Assembly: GCA_036172245.1 (NCBI GenBank)
Contig: JAYWIR010000088.1
Location: forward strand, 1-64,000
Direction of reading: 5' to 3'
Source: Raillietiella orientalis
Lineage: Eukaryota
DNA length: 64,000 nucleotides
Below, piece after piece: positions 3,001 to 25,689 of the stretch (positions are counted from its first letter, which is position 1; each line of letters opens with the position of its first letter). The notes under the pieces were generated by a model. It searched no databases, was not told the DNA's origin, and saw only the letters and a list, made by a program, of their open reading frames with translations. Position numbers and translations under genes: made by a program.

Positions 3001-3430
3001 AGCACTGGGGACTCTTCTGCAACGCCCGCCGACACCACTGGACCTGGAGAGCGGTGGACCCCAATTGTGTAAGGTGCGGGGAACGGGATTCCCTCCCCCA
3101 CCTCCTTGTGGATTGTGTTGCCCTTCCGCCCTATTGGTTTTGCTTTCCGCGGCCATCGGTATCCCTTGCGGCAACCCCAGGGACGCACTAAAAGCCTTCT
3201 TCGTTGCCGACGCCCTTCGGCCAGCGTCCTCGATAGCAGCCCTGTGCTGCCTCCGTGGGATCGTCGCCGCCTGGAGCAGGACGACGGGAGGACCTGGCGA
3301 TATGGACGCCATCCAGTGCGCCTCCCAATTACTGAGGAGAGCGTCGCGATGGCCTTACCTGGATGTTCATAACAAACAAGAGCTTGTCAGCATCCTGAGA
3401 GGGATGATGCGGCCCCAGCAGCATCAGTGA
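1..3430 (+). pseudogene. ORF2 (APE-RT-zinc finger), multiple stops and frameshifts
   Basis: ORFs 270-1214, 1221-1889, 2149-2751, 2949-3191 and 2933-3430 are collinear pieces of one L1-type ORF2. Confidence 0.9.
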
Positions 3431-3647
3431 TCCCTTCCAGTTCCCTCCCACCCTTTGTTTCTTTTTGTTTAGTGTTTTTGTTTTTCCCCTTTCCCCTGCT
3501 GCCTTGGTGGATCGAACCGGTCTAGAAACCGGTGAATTGGCAGGTTCCGTGGTTCTTAGCTTCTGGCTGGAGCATTGCCACAGCCATTAATAATTACTTT
3601 ATAAAGTTTATTTTTTAATAAACGACCCGGAGAAATCCGGGTGAAAA
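1..3647 (+). mobile_element. Tx1/L1-clade LINE, family C-like; ORF2 plus 3' UTR, 5' part outside the window
   Basis: Broken frames give APE (HLVAGDFK, IDHVF, LSDH), RT (WRPIT, DLRKAFD, REGDSLSP, AYADDLL), GGLG and NCVRCGERDSLPHLLVDC. Stop at 3430. Ends AATAAACG-ACCCGGA-GAAA-TCCGGGT-GAAAA. Confidence 0.93.
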
Positions 3648-4023
3648 TCGAATGCTTTGTGCAAATCGACCGCGACGGCAAAGGCTCCCGCCGAGTCCGT
3701 CCTATCCTCTGCATGATCTTCTTGGTCAGAGGGGCGCGCGAGGCTCCCTTGACCATCCTGAGCAACGCGTTGTCGCAACTGCCACCATGAGCTGACGAGG
3801 AGCAGTTTCGCCTCCCTGGCAGCAAAACTTCTCGCTGGAGGCGAGGGACGATCGGTGCAGGCTTTCACTCCTCCCGAAGAAGGTCCTGCGACGCAAGGGG
3901 ATTCCTCCACCTCTATTTCTGCGTGCCCTGGCTTCATTTTCCTCGGAAAAGAAACACCACACCCAAAAGGAACAGCCGCAAAGAAGCACCAAAGGCGAAG
4001 CGCAAGAATGCACGTCCGAACAA
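3648..4023 (-). mobile_element. Internally deleted LINE: 5' UTR and ORF1 start fused to an RT fragment, interrupted at the KAFD motif
   Basis: Starts TTGTTCGGACGTG (5'-end motif). ORF1-type 'RSFAA' runs into RT 'EAKLLLVSSWWQL...AVAVDLHKAFD'. Confidence 0.7.
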
Positions 4024-4040
4024 TGGACATGGTCGGCTCT

Positions 4041-4200
4041 TTGTCACTCGGGTGCGCCAAGTCGTTTATTACAAACTATCCGGGAACAGAGTTCAAGGAC
4101 AAAAAGAAAAACAAGATACGAAGGGGGTGGGATCCCCGACACGCAGGTTGGTATGCTGAAAGTCCGGAACGGGTAGGAGGGGAACACAAATACACTACTA
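4041..4200 (-). mobile_element. Isolated LINE 3' UTR fragment with terminal hairpin
   Basis: Minus strand ends AATAAACGACTTGG-CGCAC-CCGAGTGACAA after a T-rich tract. Confidence 0.65.
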
Positions 4201-4652
4201 GAGGGAACTGCGGAATGTCAACTGTTGGAATGTCAAAGGCTTGCGCGACGACGGTGACAGGCGAGATACATCCGACACCTTGCGGGAGTTCGACCTGTCC
4301 CTGTTGCAGGAGATCCACGTGATCACCTCGGCAGACGTCCAGGAGATCGAAACGATCGAGCGGTGTCTGCTGTACTGGCAATGCGGCATCCGCAACACCT
4401 GCGGGGTCGAGTTCTTCGTGAAGCAGGCTATCGACGCTGCCGTGAACGGCGTCCGCTTCGATTACGACGGTCGGGTGAGTCAACTGCTTCTCGGCTGGTC
4501 CGACTCGAACGATCTGATCGTCACGAATGTGTACGCCCCAACCGGTCAAAAGGGATACAGCAACAGTACCAGGTTGCTTGAATCCCTCAAGCGCGACTGG
4601 CTGGCCAACACGAACGTGCGGAAGCCTCACCTGATAGCGGGAGATTTCAATC
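4200..4652 (+). pseudogene. Family D APE, N-terminal half (host of the family A insertion)
   Basis: CWNVKGL...DLSLLQEIHV...NVYAP...HLIAGDFN; homology stops exactly at GDFN. Confidence 0.88.
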
Positions 4653-4730
4653 GAGTGCGGACGTGTTTTTCTTCGCTCTCGTCTCCGTGCTTTCATCCGC
4701 TTCATCTTGGCGTCGTACATTTTGACGACG

Positions 4731-6650
4731 ATGTCGACCCAACCCGAAGCTACTGAAGTTGGAGGAACAGCATCCGGATCTGCAATCGCGGAACCGAAGG
4801 CCGCCTCCACTTCGTCTTTCTCGCCAATGGAGAGGAGTTTTGCTGACGTTGCTGCCACAGCAGCCGTCAAAGGGAGACCACTCGACGAGTCGGAGTTGCG
4901 GGCATACGTAGCCCAAGGCTATCGACCTGCTCTCCGATATAAGGTGAGTGGTTTTCTTTCTGCGCGCGAAAGGAATCAGTTCAACGATGAACTGAACCGT
5001 GTTGGCGTGCGGGAGGAGGACCTCCTCGCCATTATGCCTGTAAAGGATATGGGCTATTTCAAGGTGCGTTGCAAAGACGCTGCACTTGTGCAACGCTTGC
5101 TGCGCACCCCGTTGTCGATCCGTGGCCAGAAGGTCTTCCCGGCCGCCATGGACGACTCATTTGTGGCGGAGATTTTCGACATCGAGTCCGAAATCTCCGA
5201 TATTGATATTCGGAACGCTTTGGCGAAATTCGCCACGGTCCATGCGCGGTAAAGGGTGCGTAGCAACCTCAAGGACCTCCCGTCCATACACAGCAGAGTC
5301 GCTGGAGTCCGGCTTACAATGCCGGACCGCCGTCTGCTGCCCACCAAACTACAGGTGAAAGACACGGTCGTTCACCTGTAGTTCGTGGGCAAAGTAAGAA
5401 CGTGCGAGCAATGCGGAAAGGAGGGGCATTGTTTGGATAAATGCCCCTCTGGAAAATGCCGTTATTGCAAACTATCAGGGCACCAATTGGAAAATTGCCC
5501 GGATCTTTTGCGAAAAAGGCAGCCGCGGAGCTCCATCTTAAAAAACAAAGCGCGGATACAAAGAAAAAATCAGCGAAAAACCTGGAGACCCCACGGCACA
5601 AATTCGGTAAAAACGGGAGGCGGAATGTCGCCCCAAAGCAGCAGGAAATTTCGCACGCGAAGCCCTGCGCGCCCCCTCTAGCGGCAGGGAGCCGCAAAAG
5701 AAAGGGTGCGGGGAATCCGGGGCAATGGTAAGTCCCCCTAGGCGCAATAGCAGTCCTTCCCAAGCACGCCCGGCTCTCTCGGAGTTCGAGCAACCGGCGG
5801 GGACACCAATGGACAACGGCGGTAAGGACATTTCCAGTAACGTCAGTTCCATTCCTTCATCCCCTGCAGTGGCTGAGAAGCCCAAATCGGGTAAGAAGGG
5901 TTGTGCCGTGTCGACTTCGAAAGTCGGCAAAATAAATCCGCGTCGCGATCCAACACCGCGAAAGCGGAGAAACATCTCACGGCGTCGCAGTCGGAGAGCA
6001 AGCTCTCGACTGGCGCGGATGCCATGACAACGCAGGGATTAAAAGCCCTTCCGAAGGTAGGGTGCATGACGAGCGTGTCGGAGCCATCGAAAGTGCTCCC
6101 GTCCAAAGACGCGGATGGCCTCAAAGATGGCAATGGAGCACAATCTCCATTTACGGCGCCACGCAAAGTGAGGAACCGTAATGAAGTAAAGAAGACTTCA
6201 GCAAGGGTCCCTCGTGGAACTGCGCGTGAGCACGCTGAAAACGCGCGCGCCGGGAAAGCAGCCGTCACAAAAAGCGATGCTCTGGTAACGGAAAACGACA
6301 ACACGACAGCTGTCAATCCAGCAGAACCTGTCACTACTTCGCGGAAGGCCGAAACCCGATCGAACATGCGCCGGTCGGACTCCGAAATGGATGCCGTACC
6401 GATCACCGAGACGAGGACAACTCGTTCGAAAGCGTGTGCGCGCCGATCAAAAGTAGGCAGCCAGGCAACGCTCGCCGCGAAGCAACGCGAAGTCTCCACG
6501 AAACCCGACGGGGTTAAGCCTGGCGTGGAGGCATTACATGCATGCAGCACCACAGAGGACGGTGGCGACCGTCCCCTCCAGCCAGTCGTGCTGCTCGCCG
6601 TCTGATCGCCGGAAGAAGGGAGCACAAAGCCGCCACCTTCCCAGCAGTAA
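4731..6650 (+). pseudogene. ORF1 (gag-like nucleic-acid-binding protein, two CCHC knuckles), disrupted
   Basis: RSFADVAA and LVQRLLRTPL N-terminal domain; CEQCGKEGHCLDKC and CRYCKLSGHQLENC; K/S/A-rich tail ending SQQ-TAA at 6648-6650. Confidence 0.88.
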
Positions 6651-9600
6651 TGCATGGAATCGCGTCTTCTCGTCGTCTGTCCGTAACGTGTTGAAACGTG
6701 AACGGACTACAGAACGACGAGAAGAGGCGATTAGTAGCCAACGCCCTGCGCCCCTTCGACCTGGCACTCCTGCAGGGGATTCACGTAATCTCGGACGTGC
6801 AGGCAGCCGAAATCGAGGAGCGCGCAGGCGGAACGCTACATTGGCGGTGCGGCGGCGCACGCACGTGCGGCGACGCGCTCCTCGTAAGAGGAAAGATGGC
6901 GGAAGCGGTGCGTAGTGTTCGTATTGATGACGACGCACGGATAGGCCAGCTTGTCATCAAGTGGTCCGAGTCCATCGATCTCGTCGTTAGGAACGTCTAC
7001 GTGCCGAATGGCATTCGCTACCTCGAAGAAAGAGTACCTTTCTTTGGTGAGGTGCAGAGCCACTGGCTCAACAACATTGGCTTCCAATTGGGGCACCTTG
7101 TTGCTGGGGACTTCAACGTCCGCCTGCTCTCCGACGATTGGAGCCGCCCGAGGGACCGCGCGCTGTCCATCGTGATGTGCGCGTCCGTGCATGCCGCCAA
7201 CTTGATGGTCAGCGAACCTGGAATGGAAAGATCGCTCGATTACGTTTTGCTCAATGAAAACCTGCATTCGCGCGTGGGAAGGACAGGAAGATTGCTGACT
7301 AGGCTTTCTGACCACCACAGGTGTGAGTTTGAGATTCTTCCGCCAGGCAGGGGGCCTCCGTTGCAAAACTGGAGGATGCAGGCACATTGGCTTAGCCAAC
7401 CAAAGGCTGCGGAGCATCTACGTGGACACCTCCGAGGATTTGCCATTCAAGAACTTGCGGACTGAGACGATCTCAAAAGATCTGTCCGCGAGATTTGCTG
7501 CCAATTCCCCTTGTACCAGCTTCCATGCGGTTTCGGAGAGGGCGTGGCCAACAGTAGAGACTTTCTGCAGGCCCGCACGTTTTCGAGACGCGCGGATGTC
7601 GGGCGTCTCGCAGAGTACAAGGCGAGGGCCGAGCGCCAGGTCTGGCAGTCCGGAGCAGCATGCCTGTTGGACGACAAGGGCTAGGAATGTTCGGCCCCAG
7701 CCGAAGTACGCCGCATTGTGAGACGCTACTACTCCTCGCTGTACGCGGAATCCCCGACGGAGGATATTCTTTCTGAGATACTCCTGTCTCAGGATGCTCG
7801 TGTTGTCGGCGAGGAGGAACGCGAACGTCTCAACGAGCCCTTCACGCCGGATGAAATTTCGTCCGCCATCGCTGGGCTGAAGAGACGAAAGGTGCCAGGC
7901 GCTGATGGGCTCCCTGCAGAGTTTTATCAGTGCTTTGCAGTGGAGCTCATTCCCTTGATGCTGAGACTCGCAACGCTGATGAGTGAATCCGGGAATGTCC
8001 CGGATTCCTTATGCTCAGCGAAGGTGCGTCTCCTGCCGAAAGGCGGAGACTTGCGTCAACTTAACATCTGGCGCCCGATCACCTTAGTAAACTCGTACGT
8101 CAAGTTGTTTTCCAAGGTGTGGGTCGCGCGGTTAGGAAGTATCGCGGAATCTGTGGAGAGCCCGTAACAAACCTACGCGGTTCCGGGACGATCCATGGAG
8201 GCGAACGTCCTTTTCGCGCGTACATGGATGCAGCTGCAGGAAGTTGTGGCGCAGCAAAGCCATGCTGCTGCGAAAGTCACTGCCGCAGGCAAGAAGAACA
8301 GGCGCCGACGGCAGGAGGCAACGCCAAGTGCCTTGGTGGTCGCGGTCGTTCTCCAGAAGGCGTTCGACTGCGTAAACCAGAAGCTGCTTTTGGAGCTTAT
8401 AAAACGCCTTGGGTTCCCGGTGCAACTCCTGCTGTATTTGCGCGCGTGCTGGCGCCACGCGCTTACCTGCACCACTTTCAGCGGCTGCCGCATGTAAGGT
8501 ATTCCCGTGCGTAGGGGCATCCGACAGTGCGACAGCTTCAGCGCTTTGCTCTTCAGTATCTTCTTTGAGTTGGTGCTTAGAGCATACAGGCTGACGCCGT
8601 CTCACTTGCCTAGCTCCTGCCCGGGAACGCCTGCCGTGGCCGCCTACGCTGATGACCTGCTTCTTCAGCTCCCCATGTTCACCCCGGCGTCCAGTGTCGA
8701 GGATTTCTTCGACCTGATTCGTCATGGAACGGGCGTGAGCGTGAACAGAGAGAAAAGCGTGGTCGTTCCTGTGGGTACGTCGTGGGAGGAACAGTCCGAC
8801 TGGATCCGCCTGGGGATCCCCACGAGCGGGTACCTTAAGTACCTTGGCGTTCTGTTGGGCGCTTACGGCGCAGCCGATGCGTGGGCGGACTATCTTCAGA
8901 AAGCAGAGTTGGCCATCAGCCCGTTCCTTAACGGCAAGTTTACCTTGCAGGAACGGGCGTCTATTTGGAACACCTTTGTGGCCCCCCTCCTCCGTCCCCT
9001 GTTTTTTGTTTTGGCCCCCTCTATGCGGCGAAACAGCGGGCTGAACACCTGCTCTGGAACGCTTTCTGGGGTCCGGCTAGTTCCAGGTTCTGCCTTAAAG
9101 CTTTGTTAGCTCCGCGTCGAGATGCTGGTTTGGGTATCCTGACAATGGAGCGAATCGGACTGCAGGTGCAGTTACGTCTGCTGGCACTGTGTGCCCAGCT
9201 ACGGACATCTTCCCTGTGTGTGCCAGCCCGCGTTCTCCTGCGGAGATGCGCCGACAGCATAGGATTTCTCTCGCTTTTGCCGGGCACTCAATACAGGAAG
9301 CGGGGTTTCGGGTTTCCATTGCGGCAGTTGACCGCACTTCTGGAAGCTCACTTGTGGATCTCCTGCCGCCCAATGAACTTTGAAGCTTGGCGGCAGGAGT
9401 CTGTTGAATCCTGGGCGGCGTTCCAAGGAATACGCTTTGAAGATCTTCGCCCCCTGCGTCAATTTTATCCACGATCCTTGGAAGAATTACTGCAGGACGA
9501 GGTGAAGTTTTCTACCCTGGATGCCACGCGTCTTGCCGCAGCGCTGTTTGCCCTCAGGGCAAGAAACGACAGTTACCAATAGGCGAGGTTGGAGATTTCC

Positions 9601-10243
9601 TGCACGATAGCGGGAAAAACCAAAATTCCTTGGTGCCTGGAAGACGAGTGAGTTGGCGGACGCCGCCACCTCTTGTGCTGCTGCAAAGGGTCTCCTCTGG
9701 TGGGCAGAAGAACTTGCTGTCACCCCCAAAGAAGTTGTAGTCCCTTCACAGTGTATTAGCAGTTCGCTGCTCTCCCTTGCTTGGAAACAAGACGCGTTGG
9801 TTTTTGTTCACTGGAGTTTTCAGTGCAACGAGCGTTGGCATCGTGACTCCGGGGGGCTTGCGTCTGCGAACTGCGTTCGGTGCGGATCCACGTAGTCGAT
9901 TCCGCACCTACTTCTGGACTGCGGTGTCCTACAAGGACTGTGGCGTAGGCTGACAACAGCACTAATGCATCCCGTGGACATCGCAAGAGACTTGCTGCGG
10001 CGATTCTTCACGCCGAGCGGGCTGTCCCTAAGCGCAAAAATTGCAACCATCGGTTGCATACGCGCGATAGTTTCCGTCCGCCAGGCGTTGGTAATCAACG
10101 GACAGCACCAAGAGGTAATCAGCAAAGCATCCTTCCACATGGAAGCATCCGGTAGATGGCCTCATTTGACAGAGGAGACAAAAAGGAATCTCGCCGCAAT
10201 GCACCGCCGGTTTACACACGCTCAGCAGCGGCTAACCCGGTGA
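6650..10243 (+). pseudogene. ORF2 (APE-RT-zinc finger), disrupted
   Basis: NVNGLQ, LQGIH, AGDFN, LSDHH; PGADGLPAEFY, WRPIT, KAFD, GIRQCD, AYADDLL, KYLG; NCVRCGST..PHLLLDC. Confidence 0.92.
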
Positions 10244-10556
10244 TCATTGCCCTACCCTCCATAAACTAATTTTGTATTTTCTTTTCACACCCGCGTCCCC
10301 ATAGGCTCCGGAGCATTCCAGGTGGTCATCGTTTAAATCTTTGTGAGTTCGAAGCCTAACCAAAAACCCGTTACCCTTCCCTCCAGTTTTTGATTTTTGT
10401 TTGTTTTTCCTCATTCCTCATACGCTGCAAACGGTTTGTCTACCAGGCCTGCGTGCCGGTAATTTTTCTATGTTCCCTGTCGTTCTGTTGGTTGGAGACA
10501 TTGTCCCTGTCCAGTTTATCATTATTAATAAACGCTCCGGAGTGACCGGGTGATAA

Positions 10557-10899
10557 ATTTTAATCTCCGTCTGCTATCAGTTGATCCTAAAACACAAGTA
10601 AACCCTATGAACGAGATCTACGCCGCCATGCGTGCGCGCAACTTGTTCGAGGGTGAGAGGGAAATTAAGCGCAGCATCGACCACGTCTTCTTCTACGCTG
10701 ACCTGTCTTCACGGGTCGGCAAACGGGGGAAGCTTGCGTCGACGCTGTCGGACCATTCGCGGCTAATTTTCGAGATGCGGCCTCGCGACAAGGGACCGCC
10801 ATTCAGGGATTGGCGTCTACCGGGGGACTCGACGCGACTGACAAGTGCGAAGAAACACCTTTGCGAATTCCTGAGAGGCGTCACGCTCCAGAGTCTCTC
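10557..10899 (+). pseudogene. Family D APE, C-terminal half (continuation of 4200-4652)
   Basis: FNLRLL...SIDHVF...LSDH...LRGVTLQSLS, then interrupted by a minus-strand 3' end. Confidence 0.88.
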
Positions 10900-13707
10900 T
10901 TGAAACCTGGTACGCCGGGACGTTTATGTGTTCAAATAAACTTATATAAACTGTGACTGGACCAGTAGTGCAGCCACGCCCTGGAAACATTCAGCCTGCC
11001 GGGCTACCGGTGCACAGACCGACGCGATCGACCTCGGCAGCAGAGAAGAAAGGGAATCAAAGAGAAAGAACAAAAAGAAATAAACAAAACCGGGATAGGA
11101 GCGGGAAGGGACCACTGTCTGTTGAGAGGGTCCGTCAACTTCTGGAGGATGCACGCAAGCTTTCGCTGAATGGTGGATTCCAGATGGGGCCATCGCGTCG
11201 ACTTCCTCAGGAAACGGGCGGCGTACACGGTGGTGTCCCTGTCGCTGGACACTCCCGTCGCTTTGCTCCAGGCCACGACGATCCCGCGTAGGCAGCACAG
11301 GGTTGCAAGCAAGGCCGCCGCAGGCAGGGCGTCACGGACGAAGAGGGGGCGCAAAGAGTCTCTGGAATTGTCTCCGCAATTCCCCAGGGCCGCGGAAAAG
11401 CGTTACTACAAGGGACGGAGGGCAACACATTCCAGTAACAGGTGATGGAGGTGTTCCCTCTCCCCGCAGCTGACACAATTGGGGTTCACACCCCACCGCG
11501 TCCAGTGGTGTCGGCGGGCGTTGCAGGGGAGGCCTCAATGCGACACCAGTAGTGCCGACTGTTGCCACTTCATGGGGAGGGTGCGCGAGTCCATGGGCAA
11601 CGGGGGCTTCTCCAGATATTCCTCTGGAACACCCAGTAGCTCGTCCCAGCGCAAGAGACCATTTGCGGTGGTCCTCGGGGTCGCAGCGCTGGTGAGCTGA
11701 CCGGTTCTCCAATCCCCGATCTTCTTTGCCCTACTGGTGATCTTGACAGTGAAATTTCATTGTGCCGCGACGTCGCTGCCCAGATGTTCCCGTATTGTAG
11801 GCAGTACCGCAGCAAGTGAGGGACTTTGAGCCCACGCTCTTTTTCGGGGTTCCTCGAAGATTTCTCGGAACGTGCGGTGGGCGTGCGGACCAAACAGAGC
11901 TATTCGCTGTTGTTGCAGGCTCTGCTCCTGAGTCATCGCCCACGTGCGGACGGTTTCCTGCAGCCAGGCAGGACCGTTCGCGGAACGTACGAGGATCCAC
12001 TCCGAGTTGGTCTTCACGAGCTTCGCCGCCCTTCGAAGCTCAAGTCCGCCGTAGCAGATATGGCTTCCGAGTGCAAAGTAGGACGAGAGTCCCGCATTGA
12101 TGGTGGCCCGCTCGACGAGGAGACGTGCAGGGAGGTACCAGGCGGTGCACCAATTTTTTGCCATAAAGGCAACACTCCGGAACAGGAGCTGAAGCTCAAT
12201 CCGCTCCAGCGTCAGGAGGCCAAGACCGCCGTCCCGACGCGGAGCGCACAAGTCCGCGAGACGGACTCGGGGCCTCTTTCTACCCCAAAGGGCTATCCTC
12301 AGGAGGTCCTTCGTCCTTTTCCTAGACTCCGCTGTGTGGGGGCAAACAAAAAGCAAGGGGCGAAGGAGGGGTGCCGCAAACGCGTTCCACGCCGCGGCCC
12401 GTTCCTGCAGGTAGAACCTGCCATCCTGGAACAGGCAGATCGCCGTTTGAGCCTTCTGAAGGCAGCCGGATTACGCTTCCGCAGGGGAGTAGTCCCCCAA
12501 CGGCACACAAAGGTACTTGAAGTACCTCACCGTGGGGATCCCCAAACAGACCCAGTCCTGCTGCTTTGCCGACGCCGCTCCGACTGGCATTACAAATGAC
12601 TGCGCTATGTTCACCATAAGTCCGGTTCCATGATGATGCAGGTCGAAGAACTCCTCGAGCACCGAAGCCGGTGTGGACATAGGGAGCAGCAGCAGAAGGT
12701 CGTCCGCGTATGACGAAACCGCAGGCGCACTGGGACAATCTCGCGGCAGGTGCGCCAGAGTCTCCCTGTACGCTCTCAGAACCAATTCAAAAAAGGCGCT
12801 AAAGAGCAAGGGGCTCAGGCTCTCTCCCTGCCGGATCCAACGTCGCACCGTTACGTTGTGCACGGTTTGCCCGCTGGAAAAAACATTAATGATCGCGTCG
12901 CGCCAGCTGGAGCGCAGGTAGGCCAACTAAGAGGCCGAGAAGCCCAAGCGTTCTAGAAGCCCCAGCAAGAGATTCTGGTCGACGCTGTCGAAAGCTTTAC
13001 GCAAGTCGACAGCGACCGCAAGGGCTCCCTAAAACACCCAACCGTCCCGTCTTTCGCCATCGGACGCACCGGAATTCCGGCTGCTCACTAAGACTGTTTG
13101 CTTGTTGGAGCTCTAATCATGTGGAAGCGTGGAACAGGTTTGCCTCTATGCTTCGCCCGGGAACAGCATAAGTCTGTTCCGGGCTGATGAAGATGTTGGA
13201 AACAGGTCCCAGACTCTCTGCTTACATCTTAGTTATCAACTTGGCGTCCTCATTCACTATTGTGATTGGACGTCAGTTGTTCATGTCCGTATCTCCTGCC
13301 AGCAAGTTTTGCGTGTGCATTTGTGCGCACAACTCGTTGACGTGGTCGTTCAGTGTAACCGGCGCACTTCAAAGCAGGCGCAGGTTGAAGTCACCTGCGA
13401 TCATGTGCGCTTTGTCAACACCTGCTTCGATTAGCCAATCGCCTTCAAGGGCGAGGTAGAATTCTCTTCTTGCATTCGTTCTTAACGCGTATCAACTGCT
13501 AGGAGCGTACAGCTTGGTGACGATCAGGTCGATTGAGTCGGACCAGCTGAGAGTCAGCTGACCGACGCGACCGGAGTCATCAAACCGTACGTGCTTGATT
13601 ACGGCCTCGATGGCTGGCCGAAGCAGGAAGGCGATACCGCTAGATTTCGCGGTGAGGCAGCGCCACAGCAGCTGTGAACCCGAGATCCCTTCGATCTCCT
13701 GCGCTCG
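10900..13707 (-). mobile_element. Family C-like LINE: 3' UTR, RT, internally deleted APE
   Basis: 3' end ATAAACGTCCCGGCGTACCAGGTTTCAA; SYADDLL, RQGESLSP, GGLG. APE is fused to RT at ~13285. Truncated at AQEIEG by the next element. Confidence 0.9.
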
Positions 13708-16533
13708 TACAGTGCCGACGTGTTTCCGCGTCTATCCGTGCCAACGATCGGGCAACTTTGTTCCTTCGTTTTCACTCGCACTTGTGTGTTCCTGGGCAAT
13801 CTGCAGAGCGGCATAGTGCAACATGGCCAGTACACAGGATAGTGTGGAGGAGCAAGCCACTGGATGCACTTCAGCTGCACTTGAAGTGACTGCATCCTCC
13901 GTAATGGTTTCCTCGCCCCCAATGAGGAGTTACGCCGCCGTTACCTCCCAAAGACCAGGACCCTGCGATGCGGAGTTCCAGGCATATGTGTCATCAGCAT
14001 ACATGCCTGCACTCCGTTATAAGGTCAGTGGGCCCCTTAACGGGAGAATCGGTCGTGAGCTCAATGATGAGCTCGTCCGGATCGGCGTTCGCGAGGAGGA
14101 ACTCCTTGCCATAATGCCTGCTGGCAGGATGGAATATACGAAGATTCGGTGCTAGAACGCAGCACTTGTGCAGCGCCTCCTCCGTACGCCGTTGACCATC
14201 AATGACAAGGAATTCCTACCTACCGCGATGGACGACTCTTTTGTCGTTCAATTGTGCGACATCGAACCGGAAATCTCCGACCGCAATGTTGTGAGCGTGC
14301 TGGCGCAGCTCGCCAACGTGCACACCCTGTGGAGGAGGCCGAACTGTTTGAAGGATTTCTCCTCTGTCCACATCGGACAATCCTCGGCGCAAATCACCGT
14401 CGCGAACAGGCGTGTTATGCCTGAGTAGCTGCAGGTGAACGGCACGGTCGTACACCTGTGGTTCATAGGCCAGACTCGCGCGTGCGAGCAGTGCGGCAAG
14501 GATGGGCACCGAATTAAAGAGTGCCCCTCTCCAAGATGCCGCTATTGCAAAGATTCCGGGCACGAAATCAAAAAGTGCCCGGTACTTGCAAGAAAAAGAG
14601 CCGCAGCGGAAATTCGTCGGGTTCAAGAGACCACTGCACGAAAAGCCGCAGCGGCAAATAGAAAACGTCGTTCGCAAAAACTCGCAAAAAACCACGAGCT
14701 ATCCGCGCATGAAAAGAAAGCATCCCCGCCCGCAACGCCCCGAAAGGGGAAAGCCACGGCGGGGAAGCCAATTAAAAAGGGGCGCGAGGGTTTGACGCGT
14801 GCCTTGCCTGTGCTCTCTGCCGAACTCGCAGGCACCTCTCCGAGCCAGGAACCAGGAAATCTCCGTAACACCCTGGAAGGAAGGGTAGGAAAACAGGAAC
14901 ATCGCAACAGTGCGAAGAATTCTTGCCCCGTTCCGTTGTCCCTTCCGAGTTCCGGACAGCCCACTGCAGCGCAGGCCCCTCTGCAAAAGCTACGAAAGCC
15001 GTAAAAAGCAGCGTCGCGACGAGCAAAAGCACGCTGCATACAGTAGCCCTATCGCCCACTTGGCAGGAGAGGAGCAATCTCCCTACTGTCAAGAAGGTGA
15101 CTCCGTTGCCGCCTTTTAAAATCGTAGCAAAAGCAACGCCCCCAGAGAACGCAGCGAAAATCCCGGAGGTTTCCGCAACTACTATCGCTGAAGCCACAGA
15201 AATCGCGAAGGCGAATGAAAGGTTGTAGAGAGGAGGAAAGAAAAATCTCCAAGAAACGCTTAGCAACATACATCCTTGAGCTCTTCCAAAGGAAAAAGCA
15301 GTCGCGCAAATACGAAAACACGCGCGGCTTGTGCCTCTTCCCAGGAAAAAGTCAGCGCCTTCAACGCGTGCAAGTCCGCTTCTGTGACCGCCGAGAAGAC
15401 CATTGCGGTGCAATCGGACGGATGCAAACGCACGTCGATCGTGCGAGCATCAGATTCCTCAAAGGATTCCGATAGCGCAACTAAACGACGCGTCACTCGC
15501 GCGGGAGCGAGCGCTTGCAGGGCTAAAGCCCTGAGGCGTGGCACACTCGCCGCGGAACGGCAAGTGCTCACCCCGAAACACACAGGTTCTGCACCCGGGG
15601 AGGAGCACCCGATTACGTGCAGCACAGTAGAGGCCTTTGGCAAACGCGCCCTCCAGCCCGTTGTGCTGCTTTCTGCCCGCTCGCCGGGTGAGGCGGGCAC
15701 CAAGCCCTCGCTTTCCCAGCCGTGATAAGGGCAATCGCGTCTTCTCGTCGTGTTGCCGTGACGTCTTGGAACGTCAATGGGCTCCAACACGAGGAGAAGA
15801 GGGGACTTGTTGCTCACGCTCTGCGCGCCTTTGACTTGACGCTCCTGCAGGAGATTCACAGCATCTCCGAAGAGCAGGCTTCCGTAATCGAACAACGCGG
15901 GGGCGGAACGCTACTTTATAGGTGCGGCGCTGCACGTACGTGCGGCGTCCCTTTCCTTATGCGAGGAACTTTGACAGGAGCGCTGCGCAGCGTTCGTTTC
16001 GACACGGGAGCCTGAGTGGATCAGCTTCTACTGAAGTGCTCCGACTCCCTCGACCTTGTCGTAACCAACGTGTACGCGCCGAGCGGTGCTTGAGGATGGG
16101 CCGAAAGAATTGAGTTCTTCGGTACCGTTTAAAGCCAGTGGCTCACTCGATCTCACTCTACTGTCTCCCAACTCATTGCGGGGGACTTCGACGTCCACCT
16201 GCTTTCCGATAATAGCTTCCACAAAAGGGAAAAGTTGCTAGCGGAAGAGATGTCCGCATCCGTGCATGCGTGCAACTTGTTCGCTAGCGACTCTGTGATA
16301 ACAGCCACGCCGGATCAAATATATCTTGATGAACACTTGCTCTCTCGAGTGAGACGGAAAGGTCCTGTGCCGTCCCTGCTTTCAGACCACAACAGGCTCA
16401 AATTCGAGTTGCTCCTGCCAGGCAAGGGACCTACAAACAGTTTTTGTAGGATGCCGGCAGAGTGGCTAAGCCACTCGGAGGCGTCTGTGCATCTTCGCCA
16501 GTACCTCCTCGGGTTTGCCATGAGTAAGCTCGA
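13708..16533 (+). mobile_element. Family B LINE, 5' half (5' UTR, ORF1 13823-15725, APE 15725-16533)
   Basis: Starts ACAGTGCCGACGTG; RSYAAV, CEQCGKDGHRIKEC, CRYCKDSGHEIKKC; WNVNG, LQEIH, GDFD, LSDH. Ends LLGFAMSKLD. Confidence 0.92.
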
Positions 16534-16758
16534 TTTTCAACCGGTTGCGCTGGGGTGTTTGTTCTTTGGAATAAAACAAACGTTGGTCACTGACCAGGTA
16601 GTCCGACCACACACTGGTATACAAAATTAAGCCTACCGTTCCACTGGCTCGTATTCTGGCGCGGTCCACCACGAAAGCAGAGGGGCCAAAGACAAGACAA
16701 AAAATAAAACAAATAAAATAAATATATAAAATTAAGATCTGGGGGGCACCAGAAGGGA

Positions 16759-19700
16759 TCACAGTCTGCTGTGGGGCCGTTAAATCCTTTGCAGGATACC
16801 GGCAAGCTGTTTTTGGATGTTTGAATCCAGATGATTCCATCCTGTCGCCGTCCGCAGAAATTCGGCTGCGCACTGGACAGCACCCTTATCGCGAGGTCCT
16901 CCCGTTGCTTTGCTCCATGCAGCGACGATCCCGCGAAAGCAGCACAAAGCTGCTAACGAGGCCGAGGGCCGAAGGGCGTCGCAAACGAAGAGGGATCTGA
17001 TTGCGTCTCTGGGGTTGCCACAGAGGTTAACGATTGCCGCGGTAAAACGCTTCAAAAGGGGCCGAAGAGCCACACAATCCAAAAGGAGGTGAGCGAGGGA
17101 CTTCCGTTCTCAACACCTCGCACAATTAGGGCTCACCGCTTTTCAGGTCCAATGCTGTCGGCGGGCGTTGCAGGGGAGTCCCCAATGCAGCAACAATAGC
17201 GCCGACTCCTGCCATTTCAAAAAGACGGTAGAGGTGTTCATCAGCACCGGGGGCCACTTTAATTGTTGCCGCGGAACATTTAGCAGCTCGCCCTAGTGCA
17301 ATAGACAAATAGGGGTGGTAGTCCCGGCCCCGGTATCGCAGAGAATTCCCGTTTTCCATTCCCCTATCTTTTTCTCCGTACCGGAGATTTTCATGTAAAA
17401 ATCCCATTTCGCAGCAGTGTTGCTGTTAAAATGTTTGCGAGCGGAAACAGCATTGCAGCGAGGGGAGTTTTTCTTGCCCACGCTCGTTTTTAAGGGTTCT
17501 CCAGGAAGTCCCGGAGCGTACGGCGGTCATTACGGGCGGAGTATTGTTTCTGCCTTTCTTATATGCGTTGCTGGTTGCTCTTCGCCCACGTCTCAAGCGT
17601 TTCCTGCAGCCATGGAGATCCGTTAACAAGGCGACAGCAGAGCCATCCTGCGTTCTTCCTCATCAAGTCAGCCACTCTCCATAGCTGCAACCCGCAGTGA
17701 CCGACTTGGCGGCGAAGACGGAGCGCCAGGAAGGATGACACTTTCACCTCGCCTGTACCCTTTTCGACGAGGAGACGTGCGCGCTCGCAGCAGCTGCTAT
17801 TCCAATATTTCGCCACTTGGGCGAGTAAGGGAAACTGGAGCTGGAGCTCCAGCTGCTCTAGCGTCATGAGGCCGATACCGCCGTCCCGTCGCGGAGTGCT
17901 CAAGTCCTAAAGCCGGACTAGGGCCCTCCCATTACTCAACACAGAAATCCTTAGGAGGTCCTTCGTCCGCTTTTTAGTCTCTGTGGTAGGGGGACAAACA
18001 AAAAGCCGGGTAACGAGGAGGTGCGCCGCGAATGCGTTCCACACCGCGGCCCGTTCCGGCAGAAAAAACCTGCAACCTTGGAACGGGCAGATCGCCGTCT
18101 CTACCTTTTCAAGGCTGCTGAACCACGCATCCGAAAGAAGATAATCAACCATCATTATACCGAGGAAATTGAAATACCGTACAGTGGGGATCCCCAAACG
18201 GAACCAGTCAGGCTGCCCTGCCCGCGACACACCGATTGGCATGACGGACGACTTCGCCCTGTTCACCACAAGCCCGGTTTCCCGACTTAGCAGCTCGAAG
18301 AACTCCTCGACCGCCGATGCCGAGGTGGTCATAGGGAGCAGCAGCAGTAGGTCGTCCGCATATGCTGACACCGCGGGCGTACCGAAATAGTCGCGCGGCA
18401 AGTGCGCTAGAGTTTCCCTGTAAGCTCTCACTACCAACTCGAAGTAGGTACTCAAGAGCAAGGGACTCAGGCTCTCTCCCTACCGTATGCCGCGTCCCAT
18501 CGGTACTCCGTGCACGGTGTGTCCACTGAAAAGGATCTAGATGAGCGCGTCGCGCCAGCAGTATCGCAGGTAGGTCAGCAAAGAGACCGGGAAGCTCAAG
18601 CGTTCCAGAAGCTTCAGGAGGACCCCCTGGACGACACAGTCGGATGCTTTATGCAAATGGACTGGGACTTCGAGAGCTCCCTCCCCCCCCAACTACCCCG
18701 TTTCCTAGCGGCGGATATTTTGGAAGTCCGGTTGCCCATCCTGACTTTTTCCTGTTAAATCGCGAAAAAGGAGCAGGCGAGGAACAGGTTTTCATCCATG
18801 CTCCACCCGGGAACAGCATATGTCTCCTCCGGGCTAATGAAGCTTCATGCTAACCGCCCCAGACGTTCAGCATACAATTTCGCCAGCAACTTGGGGTCCG
18901 CGTTTATCACGGTAATCGGCCGCTAGTTGCTGATTCTCCGAAGGTCTCCTCCCTTAGGGAGGAGACGCACCATTGCCGAACGAAACGAGGCGGGGACGTC
19001 GCCCGTTTCTCGGATCAGCAAGGTGAGTTGCTTCACCAGAGGAGTGAGCTCCGCCGCAAAACATTGAAAAAGTTCCGATGGCAGCCATCCTCTCATGGAG
19101 CCTTCCGCCTCTTGAGCTTTTGGATGGCCGAGATGATCTCGCCCATCGTGAAAGGCTCGTCGAGGTTCTTCCTATCTTTCTCTTCGATCGCGGCAGCGCC
19201 CTCGGGAAGAAGAAGTCGCGAGACATCCCGTTCCGGTGGAGCGGCGCGTACTGGGAGGAGTAGAATTTTTTTGATAGTCCATTTACCTGGGCGGGGGCCG
19301 AGTGCTCCGTACCCTGGTCGTCCAGTAAGCTGGCAGACCCGGATTGCCACGCCTGCCTCTCGGCTCCCTCACAGTATTCGGCTAGCCTGCGTACGTCTGG
19401 TGTTCGTGCGTAACATCGAGATTGTAAATACCATATCTCGTTACGCACGCTTTCACCAAACCTGGCAGGCAGGAGGTTCATAGGGAACTCGTCGCAGAAA
19501 TTCAGGACCGAGCTCTTGAAACGGTCCCAGTCCTGAAACGTCTGCAAGCTGTAACCTCGTATGAATCCGCGGAGATGCTCCGAGTCTTCCGAAAGTTTCA
19601 GCCAGTCCCCCAGTAAGCGCCACGCAGATGACGGCGGACTCCTATCGCGTGGGCGCACCTCGAGTACGATCCGGTCATTGTCCGACAGTTCCGACGATAA

Positions 19701-20342
19701 CTTGCCGCGCCTGCCCACGCGTGAGCATAGGTGTTGGTCAAGAAACACGTGATCTATGCTGTGGTCGATTTTTGGTTCTCACGCGAACAAGTTGCGCGTG
19801 TGCATCTCTGCGCACAGCTCGTTTACGCGGTTCCGAAGTGTGTCGGACGCACCTGACAGCTGGCGCAGGTTAAAGTCACCTGCCTTTAGGTGCGCCTTGC
19901 GCACTCCCGCTTCGTCCAGATATTCGCGCCTGAGGGTAAGAAAGAAATCTCTCCTTGCCGTTGCCCTTATCGCGTCGCTGCTGCTTGGGGCGTAGACGTT
20001 GGTAATGACCAGATCGATGGAGTCAGACCACCTGATGGTCAACTGCCCGAAGCGACCGGCACTATCGAACCGTACGCCCTTTGCCGTTGCCTCGACAGCT
20101 GGACGAAGCAGGAACGCGACACCGCAAGATTTAACGGTGCCGCAACGCCTCAGCAGCCGTCCAACCAAGATACCCTCGATCTCCGTTGCCTGATCTGTGG
20201 GGATCACGCGGATCTCTTACAGCAGCACCAGGTCTAACGACGTCAGGGTGGAGGCCACGTCTCGTTTCGTGCTGTCGTCGCTTACCCCGTTGACGTTATT
20301 ACAGGCAATTCACACACCGAGGCCAGAGGCGATTCCCGGCCT
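16759..20342 (-). pseudogene. ORF2 of the family C copy, disrupted
   Basis: NVNG, HLKAGDFN, LSDN; AYADDLL; DGGIGL; C-terminal DALRPSASLAALCCFRGIV. Confidence 0.9.
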
Positions 20343-21954
20343 TAAGGCTGGGAACGTGGTGTTGCAGCACCTGTCAACGGACAGGTGGGAGGGACGAGTA
20401 AGGGGACCGCGGCCGTCTCAGGCACTTGAAGCACCTGGGGCACAGACTCTACCCTTTCCCTCCCTCCGAAGTCGCAGGGTGAGGTTACCTCTCGAGGATA
20501 GTCCCCGGAGTTCCCCACTTTATTGGCACGCTCGCTTTCCTCAATTATCTCTTCCTTTTCCACGGAGTGGAGAATTTTGCGGGTAGCCTCTTTCGTGCAA
20601 TTGGCCTTTGGTCGGGAGACCGCGATGCCGCAGGCTGTGTTTTCCGCCTCTGCGTCAGAGTTCGGAATCTCCGACTTCTTGATCGAGGTCGGACGCCATA
20701 AGGCCTTTTCCGCGGATTTAAGGGGACGCTGCAAGGATGCAGCGAGCTTCTCCGCCGCCCGCTCAAAGGCGACATCGTCGAGCATGCGTTCGACGACGGA
20801 CGCCACCGCCAAGTCGATAGCCTCCGGCATGAATTTGCCGGAGGGCTGAATGTCGGCAGCGACGTGTGCTATTTAGCCGCTCTGTTCGACCGCAAGAATG
20901 CGCTTGATGACGACAGAGCAGCGTTTGATATTTTCGCGACGCGGCAAATTCTCGCTACGTTTCGCGACATTTTTTCTTACCTCCTTGAGGCTTTTCTGCC
21001 TCTTGGATTTTACTACCTGCCATCCAGGATCCTGGCTGTTCTTCTCGATCTTGTCCGAGTTTTCCGAGATCTCGAAGCTGACCTTCAACTGGGACACGAT
21101 AGTTGCTTTTCGAGCGGCTTCTCTCTCTTGGGCTGCCTGAACTCGTGTTTTTCTCGCCGCGCGCTTCTTGTCATTCCGTGCGGACGCGACGCGGACTTCA
21201 TCTTGCAGGCACACTGGAAGAGTGTGCTCGGGTTGCTTGCTTTGCTTGCACTGCAATTGGGGGCACCTTTTTTCAGGTTCCCTGAAGTGCTGCAATGCCC
21301 TCAGAATTGCGGCTTACCAACATACCAGATGTCAACCTCCACCTTTTTTCGTAGGGTACAACACTAGCGGACAGTGATGCGCGCGGAAGCAATAACGCAA
21401 TTGAGGAGATCGTACTCCCAAAACGGATTCGGCCTTTTCCACAACGCGTCGACAGTTCCAAATTTAACTAGTTACTTTCGGACAGCCTTTTCGGCCATCC
21501 GGAAGGCGATTTCGAGGAAATGGATTACGATAAATCTATCTTCCGTGATGGTGAGGAGCCGGCGATTCCCTAAAGGAACAGGTGTACGCAGCAGACGCTG
21601 AGCAAGACTTGCTTCTTTGCAAATGACATCAACGTACTGTCCACCACTCATGATGGTCATCGCCATGAGCTCCTCCTGTGGTACTTTGAGGGAGTGCATC
21701 GCTTTTGAGAAAGCGCCTGCACTCTCAAAGGAGTAAAGGTTGCCTACCTTGTAGAGTAGAGTAGGATTGTACCGGTCCTCCAGGTAGGCTTTTACCTTAG
21801 CCGCAGCCGCTTGCGTTGGAGCCGCAGCTACGGAACACCAGCTTCTCCCTAGCGAGGGAGTCGCTACTGTGGGGGCGGTTGCCCCCACATCCATTGATTC
21901 AGGAGGCGACATAGACGTCACCTCCTCCCTAACATTGGTGGTTGTCCCAGGCAT
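20342..21954 (-). pseudogene. ORF1 of the family C copy, disrupted
   Basis: MPGTTT..RSWCSVAA..LAQRLLRTP; degenerate knuckles (KRCPQLQCKQSKQPEH); ends RSQP*. Confidence 0.8.
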
Positions 21955-22061
21955 TAATGCCTAGCCACCACCGAATTCACTGGCACACCAAGAAAAAAAA
22001 GAAAAAAAATAAAACCATAAACGGTCAAGAGCGAAACAAAAACCCGTGCTCTCTCACTAGA

Positions 22062-25000
22062 TTTGCACCCGATTGCTCCTGGGCGTTTATTCTTTGGAAT
22101 CAAACAAACGTTGGTGGCTGACCAGTTGGTCCGTCCACGCACTGGTATACAAAATTAAGCCTGCCGAGTCACCGGTTAGTATTCGGGCACGGTCCATCAC
22201 GACAGCAGAGGAACCAAGGACAAATAAAAAAATAAAACAAAAAAAAGAAATATATAAAATCAAGATCTCGGGGGCACGGGAAGGGCTCACAGTCTGCTGT
22301 GGGGCCGTTGCATCCTCTGCAGGATGCCGGTAAGCTGTTATTGGATGTTTGAATACAGATGGGTCCAATCTGTCGCCGTCCGCATAAATTCGGCTGTGCA
22401 CTGGACGGCACCCTTATCGCGAGCTTCTCCCGTTGCTTTGCTCCATGCCGCGACGATCCCGCGAAAGCAGCACAGAGCTGCTAACGAGGACGAGGGCCGA
22501 AGGGCGTCGCAAACGAAAAGGGATCTCATTGCGTCTCTAGGGTTGCAACAGGGATTACCGACTGCCGCTGCAAAACGCTTCCAAAGGGGCGAAAGAGCCA
22601 CACAATCCAAAAGGAGCTAAGTAAGGGAATCCCGTTCTTCACATCTCGCACAATTAGGGATCACCGCTTTTCAGGTCCAATGGTGTCGGCGGGCGTTGCA
22701 GGGCAGTCTTCAATGCAGCAACAATAGCGCCGACTCGTGCCATTTTAAAGGGAGGGTGGAGATGTTCATCAGCACCGGGGACCACTTTAATTGTTCCCGC
22801 GGAACATTAAGCAGCTCGCCCCAGCGCAAAAGTCCAATAGGCGTGGCAGTCCGGGCCGCGGAATCGCAGAGAATTTTCCGTTTTCTATTCCCCGATCTTT
22901 TTCTCCGTACCGAAGATTTTGATGTAAAAATCCCATTTTGCAGCAGTGTATCTGTTCAAATGTTCCGCAAGAGGAAACTGCATTGCAGCGAGGAGAGTTA
23001 ATCTTGCCCACGTTCGTTTTTGGGGGTTCTTCAAAACCTCCCGGAGCGTCAGGCGGTCATTACGGGCGAAGAATCTTTTCTGCCCTACTTGGGTGTGTTG
23101 CTGGTTGCTCTTTGCCCACGTCTGAACAGTTTCCTGCAGCCATGCAGATCTGTTAACGGGGCGACAGCAGTGCCATCCTCCGTTCTTGCTCATCAGGTCA
23201 GCCACTCTTCGTAGCTGCAATCCGCAGTGACCGATTAGGCGGCGCCGACGGAGCGCAAGGAAGGATGACGGTCCCACCTTGCCTGTAGCCTGCTCGACGA
23301 AGAGACGTAAGGGTTCGCACCAACTTCTATTCAATATTTCGCAACTAGGGCGAGTAAGCGAAACTGGAGCTGGAGTTCCAGCCGCTCTAGCGTCGTGAAG
23401 CCGATACCGCCGTCCCGTCGAGGATCGCTCAATTCCTAAAGCCGGACTCGGGCACTCCCATTACCCCACAGGGCAATCCTTATTAGATCCATCGTCCGCT
23501 TTTTAGTCTCTGTGGTGGGGGGACAAACTAAAAGCGCAGAACGAAGAAAGGGCTCCGCAAATGCGTGTCACACCGCGGCCCGTTCCGCAAGGAAGAACCT
23601 GCGGCCTTCGAAGGGGCCGATCGCCGTCTCTACCTTTTGAAGGCAGCTGGAACACGCATCCGAAGTGAGATAATCACCCATCAATACACCAAGGTACTTG
23701 AAGTACCGTACCGTGGGGATCCCCAAACGGACCCAGTTTGGCTGCCCTGCCCGCGACACACCGATTGGCATGACGGACGACTTCGCCCTGTACACCTCAA
23801 GCCCGGTTTCCCGACTTAGTAGCTCGAAGAACTCCTCGACCGCCGATGCCGAGGTGGACACAGGGAGAAGCACCAGTAGGTCGTCCGCATATGCTGATAC
23901 TGCGGACGTACCGGGATAGTCGCGCGGCAGGTTCGCTAGAGTTTGCCTGTACGGTCTCAGTACCCACTCGAAGTAGGTACTGAAGAGCAAGGGACTCAGA
24001 CTGTCTCCCTGGCGTTCGACGCGTCGCGTCGGTACGCCGTGCACCATGTGTCGACTGAAAAAGATCTGGATGTGCGCGTCGTGCCAGCAAGTTCGCAGGT
24101 AGGTCACCAAAGAGCCCGGGAAGCACAAGGGTTCCAGGAGCTCCAGGAGGAGCCTCTGGTCGACACAGTGGAATGCTTGATCCAAATCGATTGCGACTGC
24201 GAGGGCTTCCTTCCCCCCTTACCATGCCGTTTTCTAGAGGCGGACATTCCGGAAGTCCGGTTGCCCATCCTGCCTTTTTTCTGTTAAATCGCGAAAAAGG
24301 AGCAGGCGAGGAACAGGTTTTCATCCATGCTCCACCCGGGAACAGCATATGTCTCCTCCGGGCTCATTAAGCTTTATGCTAACCGCCCCAGACGTTCAGC
24401 ATGCAATTTCGCCAGCAACTTGGGGTCCGCGTTTATCACGGTAATTGGCCGCTAGTTGCTTATTCTCCGAAGGTGTCCTCCCTTAGGGAGGAGACGCACC
24501 TTTGCCGAACGAAACGAGGCGGGGACGTCGCCCGTTTCTCGGATCAGCAAGGTGAGTTGCTTCACCAGAGAAGTGAGCTCCGCCGCAAAACATTGAAAAA
24601 GTTTCGATGGCAGCCATCCTCTCATAAAGCCTTCCGCCTCTTGAGCTTTTGGATGGCCGAGATGATCTCGCCCATCGTGAATGGCTCGTCGAGGTTCTTC
24701 CTATCTTTCTCTTCGATCGCCGCAGCGCCCTCGGGAAGAAGAAGTCGCGAGACATCCCGTTCCGCTGGAGCGGCGCGTACTGGGAGGAGTAGAATTTTTT
24801 TAATAGTCCATTTACCTGGGCGGGGGCCGAGTGCTCCGAACCCTGGTCGTCCAGTAAGCTAACAGACCTGGATTGCCAGGCCTGCCTCTCGGCTCGCTCA
24901 CAGTATTTGGCTAGCCTGCGTACGTCTGGTGTTCGCGCGTAACATCGAGATTGTAAATACAATATCTCGTTACGCAGGTTTTCACCAAACCTGGCAGGCA

Positions 25001-25689
25001 GGAGGTTCATAGGTAACTCGTCGCAAGAATTCCGGACCGAGCGCTTCAAGCGGTACCAGTGCTGAAGCGTCTGCAAGCTGAAACCTCGGATGAATTCACG
25101 GAGATGCTATGCGGCTTCCGGAAGTTTCAGTTAGTCCCCAGGTAAGCGCTACGCAGATGGCGGCGTACTCCTATCGCGTGGGCGCACCTCCAGTACGATC
25201 CGTTCATGATCCGACAGTTCCGACGGTAACTTGCCGCGCCTGCCCACGCGTGAGCATAGGTGCCGGTTAAAAAACACGTGATCTATGCTGTCGGCCATTT
25301 CCGGATCTCGCGCGAACAATTTGCGCGTGTGCTTCTTTGCGCACAGCTCGTTCACGCGGTCCCGAAGTTTGTCGGACGCACCTGACAGCAGCCGCAGGTT
25401 AAAGTCACCTGCGATTAGGTGCGCTTTGCGCACTCCCTCTTCGTCCAGATATTCGCGCCTTAGGGCAAGGAAGAAATCTCTTCTAGCTTTTGCCCTCAGC
25501 GCGTCGCTGCGACTTGGGGGGTACACGTTGGTAATGACCAGTTCGATGGAGTCGGACCTCCTGATGGTCAACTGTCCGACGCGACAGTCACTATCGAGGC
25601 GTACGCTTTTTCCCGCAGCCTCGACAGCTAGACGAAGCAGGAACGCGACACCGCAAGATTTTACGGTACCGCAACGCCACAGCAGCCGT
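22062..25689 (-). mobile_element. Family C LINE (most of ORF2 plus 3' UTR), head-to-tail with the previous copy
   Basis: 3' end AATAAACGCCCAGGA-GCAA-TCGGGTGCAAA abuts the 5' end of 16534-22056; HLIAGDFN, LSDH, RQGDSLSP, AYADD. Confidence 0.92.

Follow-up and report, generated by a model that had tools for sequence, protein, structure and literature searches.

A LINE family that probably inserts antisense at a fixed codon block of other LINEs' endonuclease gene in Raillietiella orientalis

When long interspersed nuclear elements (LINEs) pile up inside one another, do the copies land anywhere, or does each family have a place of its own? The question is raised by the first 64,000 nucleotides of contig JAYWIR010000088.1 from Raillietiella orientalis (GenBank assembly GCA_036172245.1), the stretch of DNA analyzed here and called the window below. 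From position 1 to about 46,000 it consists almost entirely of decayed non-long-terminal-repeat retrotransposons, LINE copies inserted into LINE copies, as judged by self-comparison at the DNA and protein level and by Pfam matches. Family groups within this nest of about 45 kb were told apart by the same self-comparison, and their names (A, B, H and so on) are our own. A first-pass annotation, made from the letters alone, had proposed that one of them, family B, targets in antisense the Ala-Gln-Glu-Ile (AQEI) codons of the apurinic/apyrimidinic endonuclease (APE) gene of other LINEs, with a target-site duplication (TSD) of about 14 bp. The antisense AQEI target is well supported by the evidence presented here; a duplication of 12-14 bp is plausible.

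Two copies carry the 5' end of family B: B1 (13708-16533) and B2 (42927-44250). Both lie on the plus strand, and both adjoin a minus-strand LINE copy at the identical base of its APE coding sequence, leaving the host sequences CGAGCGCAGGAGATC (B1) and CGAGCACAAGAGATC (B2). In the first host, X, the remnant of the target at 13690-13707 (-) reads CGAGCGCAGGAGATCGAA, encoding R-A-Q-E-I-E; 13707 is the last host base, and B1 opens from 13708 with TACAGTGCCGACG. In the second, H4, the remnant at 42909-42926 (-) reads CGAGCACAAGAGATCGAA, and B2 opens from 42927 with CACAGTGCAGACG. The R-A-Q-E-I-E frame at the site lies about 8-13 residues past the LLQEIH motif of the host. A 24-nucleotide pattern describing the B 5' end occurs twice in the window versus zero times expected (100 shuffles), and each time it meets a host of about 5.5 kb at one and the same base, in one orientation, so that chance is an implausible explanation. 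The junction sequences that the first-pass annotation had given for 13707, 42926 and 26889 are all present exactly as it gave them, and its central claim, that family B stands in antisense within the AQEI codons of the APE gene of other LINEs, is borne out by two independent 5' junctions at an identical base.

Both hosts are H-type LINEs that run from their AQEI codons to their 3' ends. Host X (10899-13707, -) has an internal deletion, and its 3' end (~10899) itself lies antisense at the end of an APE piece (10558-10898). Host H4 (39591-42926, -; 3' end ~39591) is a mosaic, 70-99% identical to the H1 copy and 56-76% to X. As for the inserted elements, B1 is the 5' part of a family B LINE, with a 5' untranslated region (UTR) at 13708-13822, a first open reading frame (ORF1) from the ATG at 13823, and an APE domain at 15770-16533 that contains three in-frame stops. 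ORF1 has a match to zf-CCHC (PF00098) within 14429-15001, and two CCHC motifs can be read in its translation. The APE region (15770-16531) aligns with that of A1, a near full-length copy of family A, over 254 residues at 52% identity (E 1e-77); the B1 APE pieces alone gave no Pfam hit because the stops break them. H1 interrupts B1 at the end of the APE domain, at 16533. B2 comprises the 5' UTR and ORF1 of a second copy, 69-85% identical to B1 depending on the region, and ends at about 44250 against an unrelated minus-strand LINE whose reverse transcriptase (RT) ORF spans 44210-45238. This distant LINE, D (44210-45918, -), retains an RT frame that is open over 343 codons (PF00078, E 1e-17), has a weak APE match, and shares 26-33% protein identity with A1.

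The same site carries a 3' junction in a third host. Host C (25703-26889, +) is a 5'-truncated H-group LINE made up of the ORF1 CCHC region and APE residues 1-41. It passes through LLQEIHVISAEQAQEI and ends CAAGCGCAAGAGA(T), positions 26876-26889 (+) reading CAAGCGCAAGAGAT. After CAAGCGCAAGAGAT comes TTCTCACCCGG, the reverse complement of the shared LINE 3' end ...GACCGGGTGAGAA(A), which belongs to a fragment we call B3 (26890-28466, -). B3 contains the C-terminal part of ORF2 and a 3' UTR, and its 3' end ...AAACGCCTTGGCGTGACCGGGTGAGAA(A) adjoins host C. We also considered whether C and the H3 copy (from 28467) could be a single host from which B3 had deleted about 590 bp, and rejected this because the APE start of C is only 65% identical to H1, and H3 is 87% identical to it.

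B3 is probably a piece of family B. Over the C-terminus of ORF2 it shares 49-51% of its amino acids with A1, against 25-37% for H copies, and B1 is 46-61% identical to A1 in ORF1. In maximum-likelihood (ML) trees, B1 (APE region, 13 rows) and B3 (region from the C-terminal part of RT to the 3' end, RT-C/3', 9 rows) are each placed as sister of the A clade with 100/100 support. The link between the 3' fragment at 26889 and family B, which had been put forward as an inference, thus gains from tree position and from identity to A1, but not from sequence overlap: B3 starts past the RT core, B1 and B2 stop before RT, and RT itself is in none of the three pieces. The alternative that survives best accepts the AQEI target of family B and makes the fragment at 26890 another A-like lineage using the same site, in which case the true TSD or target deletion would differ from about 14 bp. 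In its favour, B3 has no overlap with B1 or B2, and the window does hold several lineages (A, B, G, H0, X, H1-4 and C) with a near-identical 3' end motif. That motif, AATAAACGCyCCGG-n5-CCGGGTGAnAA(A), is common to all LINE groups of the window and ends ...CCGGGTGAGAA(A); poly(A) is absent at every LINE 3' end in the window, the target sequence following directly after ...CCGGGTGAnAA(A). We nevertheless consider a separate lineage unlikely, given that B3 and B1 occupy the same sister-of-A position on branches of similar length (0.32 and 0.36) and that the window showed no further lineage that is sister to A.

If B3 does belong to family B, its flank can be combined with those of B1 and B2 to estimate the duplication. 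In B orientation the upstream flanks end ...ATCTCCTGCGCTCG (B1) and ...ATCTCTTGTGCTCG (B2), and the downstream flank of B3 begins (A)TCTCTTGCGCTTG, so that the duplicated block would be 14 bp at most. Two bases are ambiguous: T 26889 may be part of the host (GAGAT) or of the element (GAGAAA), and G 13707 part of the host or of B. The block would shrink to 13 bp if the element ends GAGAAA, as the AAA ends of A1 and A2 suggest, and to 12-13 bp if G 13707 is part of B. The overlap behind the proposed 14-bp TSD is therefore present, but its length comes out as 12-14 bp rather than firmly 14, read across different copies and hosts.

A full-length B copy read on both flanks, which the first-pass annotation had named as the way to check the duplication, is absent from the window, where B1 is cut at 16533 and B2 at about 44250. 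The remainder of B1 was not found elsewhere in the window, and the only A/B-like RT found on the plus strand is that of A2. Exact scans of metagenome contigs gave zero matches to the 5' junction pattern and zero to the 3' junction pattern; of 98 pattern matches from a scan of prokaryote genome contigs with a protein pattern, none was confirmed. In an outside sequencing run (X1), 10% of the sampled words were present, and 76 contigs at 80% likeness, besides 34 loose ends, were obtained; none of the best 8 of the 76 contigs crosses 13707|13708 to supply a second flank. One 864-nucleotide contig of this run, with 49 differences from B1, ends exactly at 13707, as expected of a repeat boundary in a de Bruijn graph. 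Because such contigs end where shared sequence stops, the C at 13706 is unshared and the 5' end of B lies at 13707 or 13708.

What does family B recognize? We compared ten APE copies of the window at the site and based the census on nine, H2 being broken 9-10 bp further on by C. Three copies, X, H4 and C, carry the motif C[GA]AGC[GA]CA[GA]GAGAT, and all of them are occupied. It is absent from the six uninterrupted copies, H1, G, G3, A1, A3b and the B1 APE (0/6 occupied; Fisher exact p ~0.012 computed from these counts), in which all three breaks align to the A-Q-E-I codons. H1, for instance, reads CAGGCAACGGAGATC (DQATEIE) through the site, and the B1 APE reads GCTTCCGTAATC. A search for unoccupied copies of AGCRCARGAGATCGAA with up to two mismatches found none in the window. 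The B site thus looks like a long motif carried by only some host subfamilies, with every assessable carrier occupied. Another copy, H0, also carries the motif, but its occupancy is unreadable, as the window opens with GCGCGGGAGATCGAATGC, 3 nucleotides inside it; the contig start may itself be another B junction, or the assembly may have broken at one. At 3998-4012, a sequence resembling the B motif was judged to be due to chance, lying in non-APE sequence 25-30 nucleotides from the 3' end of a short LINE fragment (M).

A looser preference could produce a similar picture: if B and H-type elements shared a short CARGA-like taste for Gln-Glu codons, AQEI would be one of several look-alikes. H-type 3' ends do fall at ...CAAGAACTTGC^, ...CAAAGATTCGC^ and ...CAGAGTCTC^, which loosely resemble ...CAAGAGAT^ at the B site. 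We regard this explanation as improbable, however, because look-alikes stand empty: G and G3 carry CAGGAGATCGAA with a different upstream half, H1 carries GGAGATCGAG, and all are unoccupied, while the LLQEIH codons (CTGCAGGAGATC) are never a junction among the ten APE copies. Moreover, B-lineage ends and H-type ends each occur at their own site only.

The two 5' junctions of family B are independent events. Twice, in composites spanning 4652-15035 and 36384-44250, the layers follow one another as an A 3' end, host APE residues ~139-255, a minus-strand H-type copy and a plus-strand B. Nucleotide identity between corresponding layers is 85% for A1 and A2, 69-85% by region for B1 and B2, 56-76% for X and H4, and 50% for the innermost host pieces, hA1 and hA2. 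One duplication would leave all layers equally diverged, so the very unequal divergence speaks against it, and the repeated order is better explained as the product of fixed insertion sites used again and again. The hosts of B1 and B2 belong to different subfamilies, with H4 reaching 78-81% identity to H1-H3 in the RT-C/3' region against 63% to X; in the ML tree, hA2 joins A, and hA1 joins the H/G group. With host C included, the same target is hit in three hosts from different subfamilies, with a 5' junction in two of them and a 3' junction in the third. That all the junctions are copies of one event spread through the nest by segmental duplication, inversion or gene conversion, as the twofold order, the mosaic H copies and the existence of inverted duplicated blocks (21574-25095 versus 31995-28469) might suggest, is very improbable, since layers that differ by 15% to 50%, innermost pieces from different families and a third junction that is a 3' end in a different host do not fit a single duplication.

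We therefore think it likely that family B is a sequence-specific APE-type LINE that inserts antisense at AQEI codons and duplicates about 12-14 bp. Pieced together from its fragments, the element would have an ORF1 with two CCHC knuckles, an ORF2 with APE and RT, a conserved 3' stem-loop and no poly(A). The nick positions and the role of the endonuclease, as read from the junctions, would be as follows. The B endonuclease would nick the coding strand of certain H-type copies within Ala-Gln-Glu-Ile, at ...GCGCARGAGA(T)^, and the freed 3'-OH would prime reverse transcription from the 3' end of the B RNA (target-primed). Priming from the coding strand would leave B antisense to its host. The second strand would then be cut about 12-14 bp away, and repair would duplicate the block C[GA]AGC[GA]CA[GA]GAGA(T). 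Families A and H, described below, show the same precise style of insertion, which lends support to this scheme.

Several points weigh against it. The census covers only nine copies. Tree position is all that connects B3 with B1 and B2, the TSD is pieced together from three copies in three hosts, and junction boundaries are uncertain by 1-2 nucleotides per side. The H copies are mosaic, H1 and H4 being 70-99% identical along their length, so recombination or gene conversion within the nest weakens arguments based on divergence. Finally, the truncated copy C joins H2 in antisense 9-10 bp from the B site (25690-25720); a join so near means either that the neighbourhood is not used by B alone or that rearrangements occur there. 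The join itself, downstream of the B site in H2, brings in C at 25703, inside its ORF1 CCHC region, and may reflect either a truncated insertion that deleted a little of the target or a rearrangement. The mosaic structure is sharpest between H4 (39591-42926) and H1 (16534-20200), whose identity is 94-99% across the RT core and drops to 70-76% in parts of the regions on either side, a sign of recombination, gene conversion or template switching at the RNA level among H copies.

Family A comprises A1 (4652-10557, +), A2 (36384-39242) and two 5' parts (A3 and A4). It has a site of its own in the same gene, in sense orientation at the GDFN codons. Three 5' junctions (4652, 32368 and 36257, the last on the minus strand) read host ...GA(T/C)TTCAAT followed by CGAGTGCGGACG, and two 3' junctions are present, at 10557 and 39242. 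A1 splits its host APE into 4229-4651 and 10558-10898, and its flanks, ...ATTTCAAT and ATTTTAAT, the latter opening with (A)TTTTAAT, give a TSD of 7-8 bp read on both sides of one copy. The claim that A and B are relatives differing in site, orientation and TSD length is thus upheld: they are sisters in the trees, and A inserts in sense, at GDFN, with 7-8 bp duplicated. The DNA-binding loops of the endonuclease had been singled out for comparison between them; the APE domains of A, B and H proved to be collinear, without loop-sized indels, so that differences in specificity would lie in substitutions. The A1 APE matches PF03372 and aligns weakly (E 0.035) with a human L1 endonuclease chimera (2v0s), placing LLQE on the L1 'IQETH' block and GDFN on the L1 'GDFN' block; both blocks, we assume, hold catalytic residues. 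At 6770-6790 the A1 APE reads LLQGIH where other copies have LLQEIH, replacing the glutamate aligned with 'IQETH' of the L1 endonuclease, in a frame open for 256 codons. Two family A 5' parts are inverted with respect to each other (32362-33793 versus 36263-34836, 84% identical), meeting at 34833/34836, with a host APE piece at 36255-36383 (-) beside the pair (window 34833-36383). Such a layout suggests that the DNA here was inverted or rearranged into a palindrome, not that an element inserted.

A third fixed site for LINE-in-LINE insertion is the end of the APE domain. In three cases an H-type 3' end is found in antisense at its last codons (...IQEL|DWD), H1 in B1 (16520-16545), H4 in hA2 (39580-39601) and X in hA1 (10890-10910), and the hosts are of three lineages. 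H1 (16534-22059, -) is a full-length H-type LINE of about 5.5 kb. A contig from run X1 reads past 16533 into GGACTGGGACGATCTGAAAAGATCGGTCCG, the uninterrupted continuation of the host, which fixes this boundary of H1. At its other end, a 613-bp stretch (21445-22057) considered as a separate element turned out to be the 5' UTR and ORF1 start of H1. Besides H1, H4, X and C, the H group includes H0 (1-3647), H2 (~22061-25702, -) and H3 (28467-31506, +). Both full-length H 5' ends of the window are head-to-tail joins with at most 2 nucleotides between the copies and no target sequence: the H2 3' end ...GGGTGCAAATC adjoins the H1 5' end TAGTGAGAGAGCACGG (22059/22060), and the H3 3' end ...GGGTGGAAAA adjoins another H 5' end, CGAGCGAGAACGG (31506/31507). 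These could result from template jumping during reverse transcription or from tandem insertion.

The rest of the window can be described briefly. Pfam finds RT, APE-type endonuclease, CCHC knuckles and a weak zf-RVT in many broken frames on both strands, with the RT domain (PF00078) in families A and H; the remaining host pieces of the APE gene are G, G3, hA1 and hA2. GC content is about 55% in the nest and 67-70% in the last 8 kb of the window. Two short fragments carry the shared 3' motif: M (4041-4228, -), whose end at ~4041 lies just upstream of a host APE start, and K (52107-52700, -), whose end at ~52107 lies outside the nest; their flanks fit none of the three target blocks (AQEI, GDFN and APE-domain end). 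The flank past the H0 3' end (3648-4040) was considered as an antisense APE piece and rejected, as it gave no significant match. At 47890-48028 (-), about 2 kb past the edge of the nest, the window holds an entire gene for the U4 spliceosomal snRNA (Rfam RF00015, 100.7 bits).

Relatives of these LINEs are scarce in protein libraries. Neither the A1 APE nor the A1 RT piece had a match in a word-index search of longer proteins, and a language-model protein atlas returned generic RT clusters only. With phmmer, 1.84 billion representatives yielded 27 hits (E up to 0.001), none carrying a name, and just one below 1e-10, a 106-residue unnamed metagenome fragment.

Family B is best regarded as one member of a three-family system of LINEs with fixed sites of their own in one another's APE genes. 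Taken together, the three sites raise a possibility that we offer tentatively: the nest may house a guild of related LINE lineages, at least three in number, each with its own fixed landing block among the codons of the endonuclease gene of the others. Family A would take the GDFN codons in sense, family B the AQEI codons just past LLQE in antisense, and H-type elements the last APE codons in antisense; we put the odds of this division slightly short of even. If it is true, the LINEs of this locus live chiefly by parasitizing one another, and a nest made of LINEs only grows by itself, possibly as a centromere-like cluster. Hosts would escape by changing the motif, as the B, A and H1 APE genes lacking the B motif suggest, in an arms race fought over one coding motif. 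It would also provide a concrete mechanism for self-building LINE-only nests such as those at green algal centromeres. For annotation, fixed junction motifs let such nests be taken apart layer by layer.

Site-specific LINEs are of wider interest as natural models for programmable, RNA-templated gene insertion, and related families with different targets are material for learning what sets endonuclease specificity. In this window, two families with APE domains 52% identical differ in site, strand and stagger, and a third group uses yet another site within the same 770-bp gene.

Among the closest known systems are R1 and other site-specific APE-type LINEs of the R1 clade. R1Bm inserts into a 14-bp region of the 28S rDNA, which becomes the TSD, with defined cuts on both strands (PMC1919474). 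Family B resembles R1 in its APE domain, its fixed landing site, the precision of its 5' junction and a putative stagger of 12-14 bp. Unlike R1, whose target is rDNA, it uses the coding sequence of other LINEs, and its specificity is read from junctions only. In the choice of another mobile element as target, family B is more like Tx1L of Xenopus, a sequence-specific APE-type LINE that inserts into the transposon Tx1D (PMC1919474). The target of Tx1L is a DNA transposon, however, whereas here sister LINE families are hit in their endonuclease gene, at sites that differ from one inserting family to another.

As to nest structure, Zepp and ZeppL form LINE-in-LINE nests at green algal centromeres (PMC8226300, PMC3446292, PMC9940879, PMC11005252). 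The likeness extends to nested clusters in general; the window has head-to-tail H copies and a LINE-only nest beside GC-rich sequence. The available portions of those papers describe no codon-level target, orientation rule or TSD, whereas here several families have their own sites. Zepp and ZeppL belong to the L1 clade, and the Zepp 3' end has a poly(A) tail. The 3' ends of the window's LINEs have none, and the likeness meant here is one of nest structure. In Cryptococcus, the non-LTR element Cnl1 forms arrays by piling up in its own copies (bioRxiv 10.1101/2021.08.11.455996). These arrays are subtelomeric and involve a single family, and the accessible text describes no defined site inside a coding motif. 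A literature search, which took in neither subscription journals nor the original Zepp paper, found no description of LINEs targeting a codon block in the endonuclease gene of other LINEs, and none of sister LINE families dividing up that gene. Fixed-site APE-type LINEs and LINE-in-LINE nests are thus already known; what this locus would add is the use of codon blocks of the endonuclease gene itself as the target.

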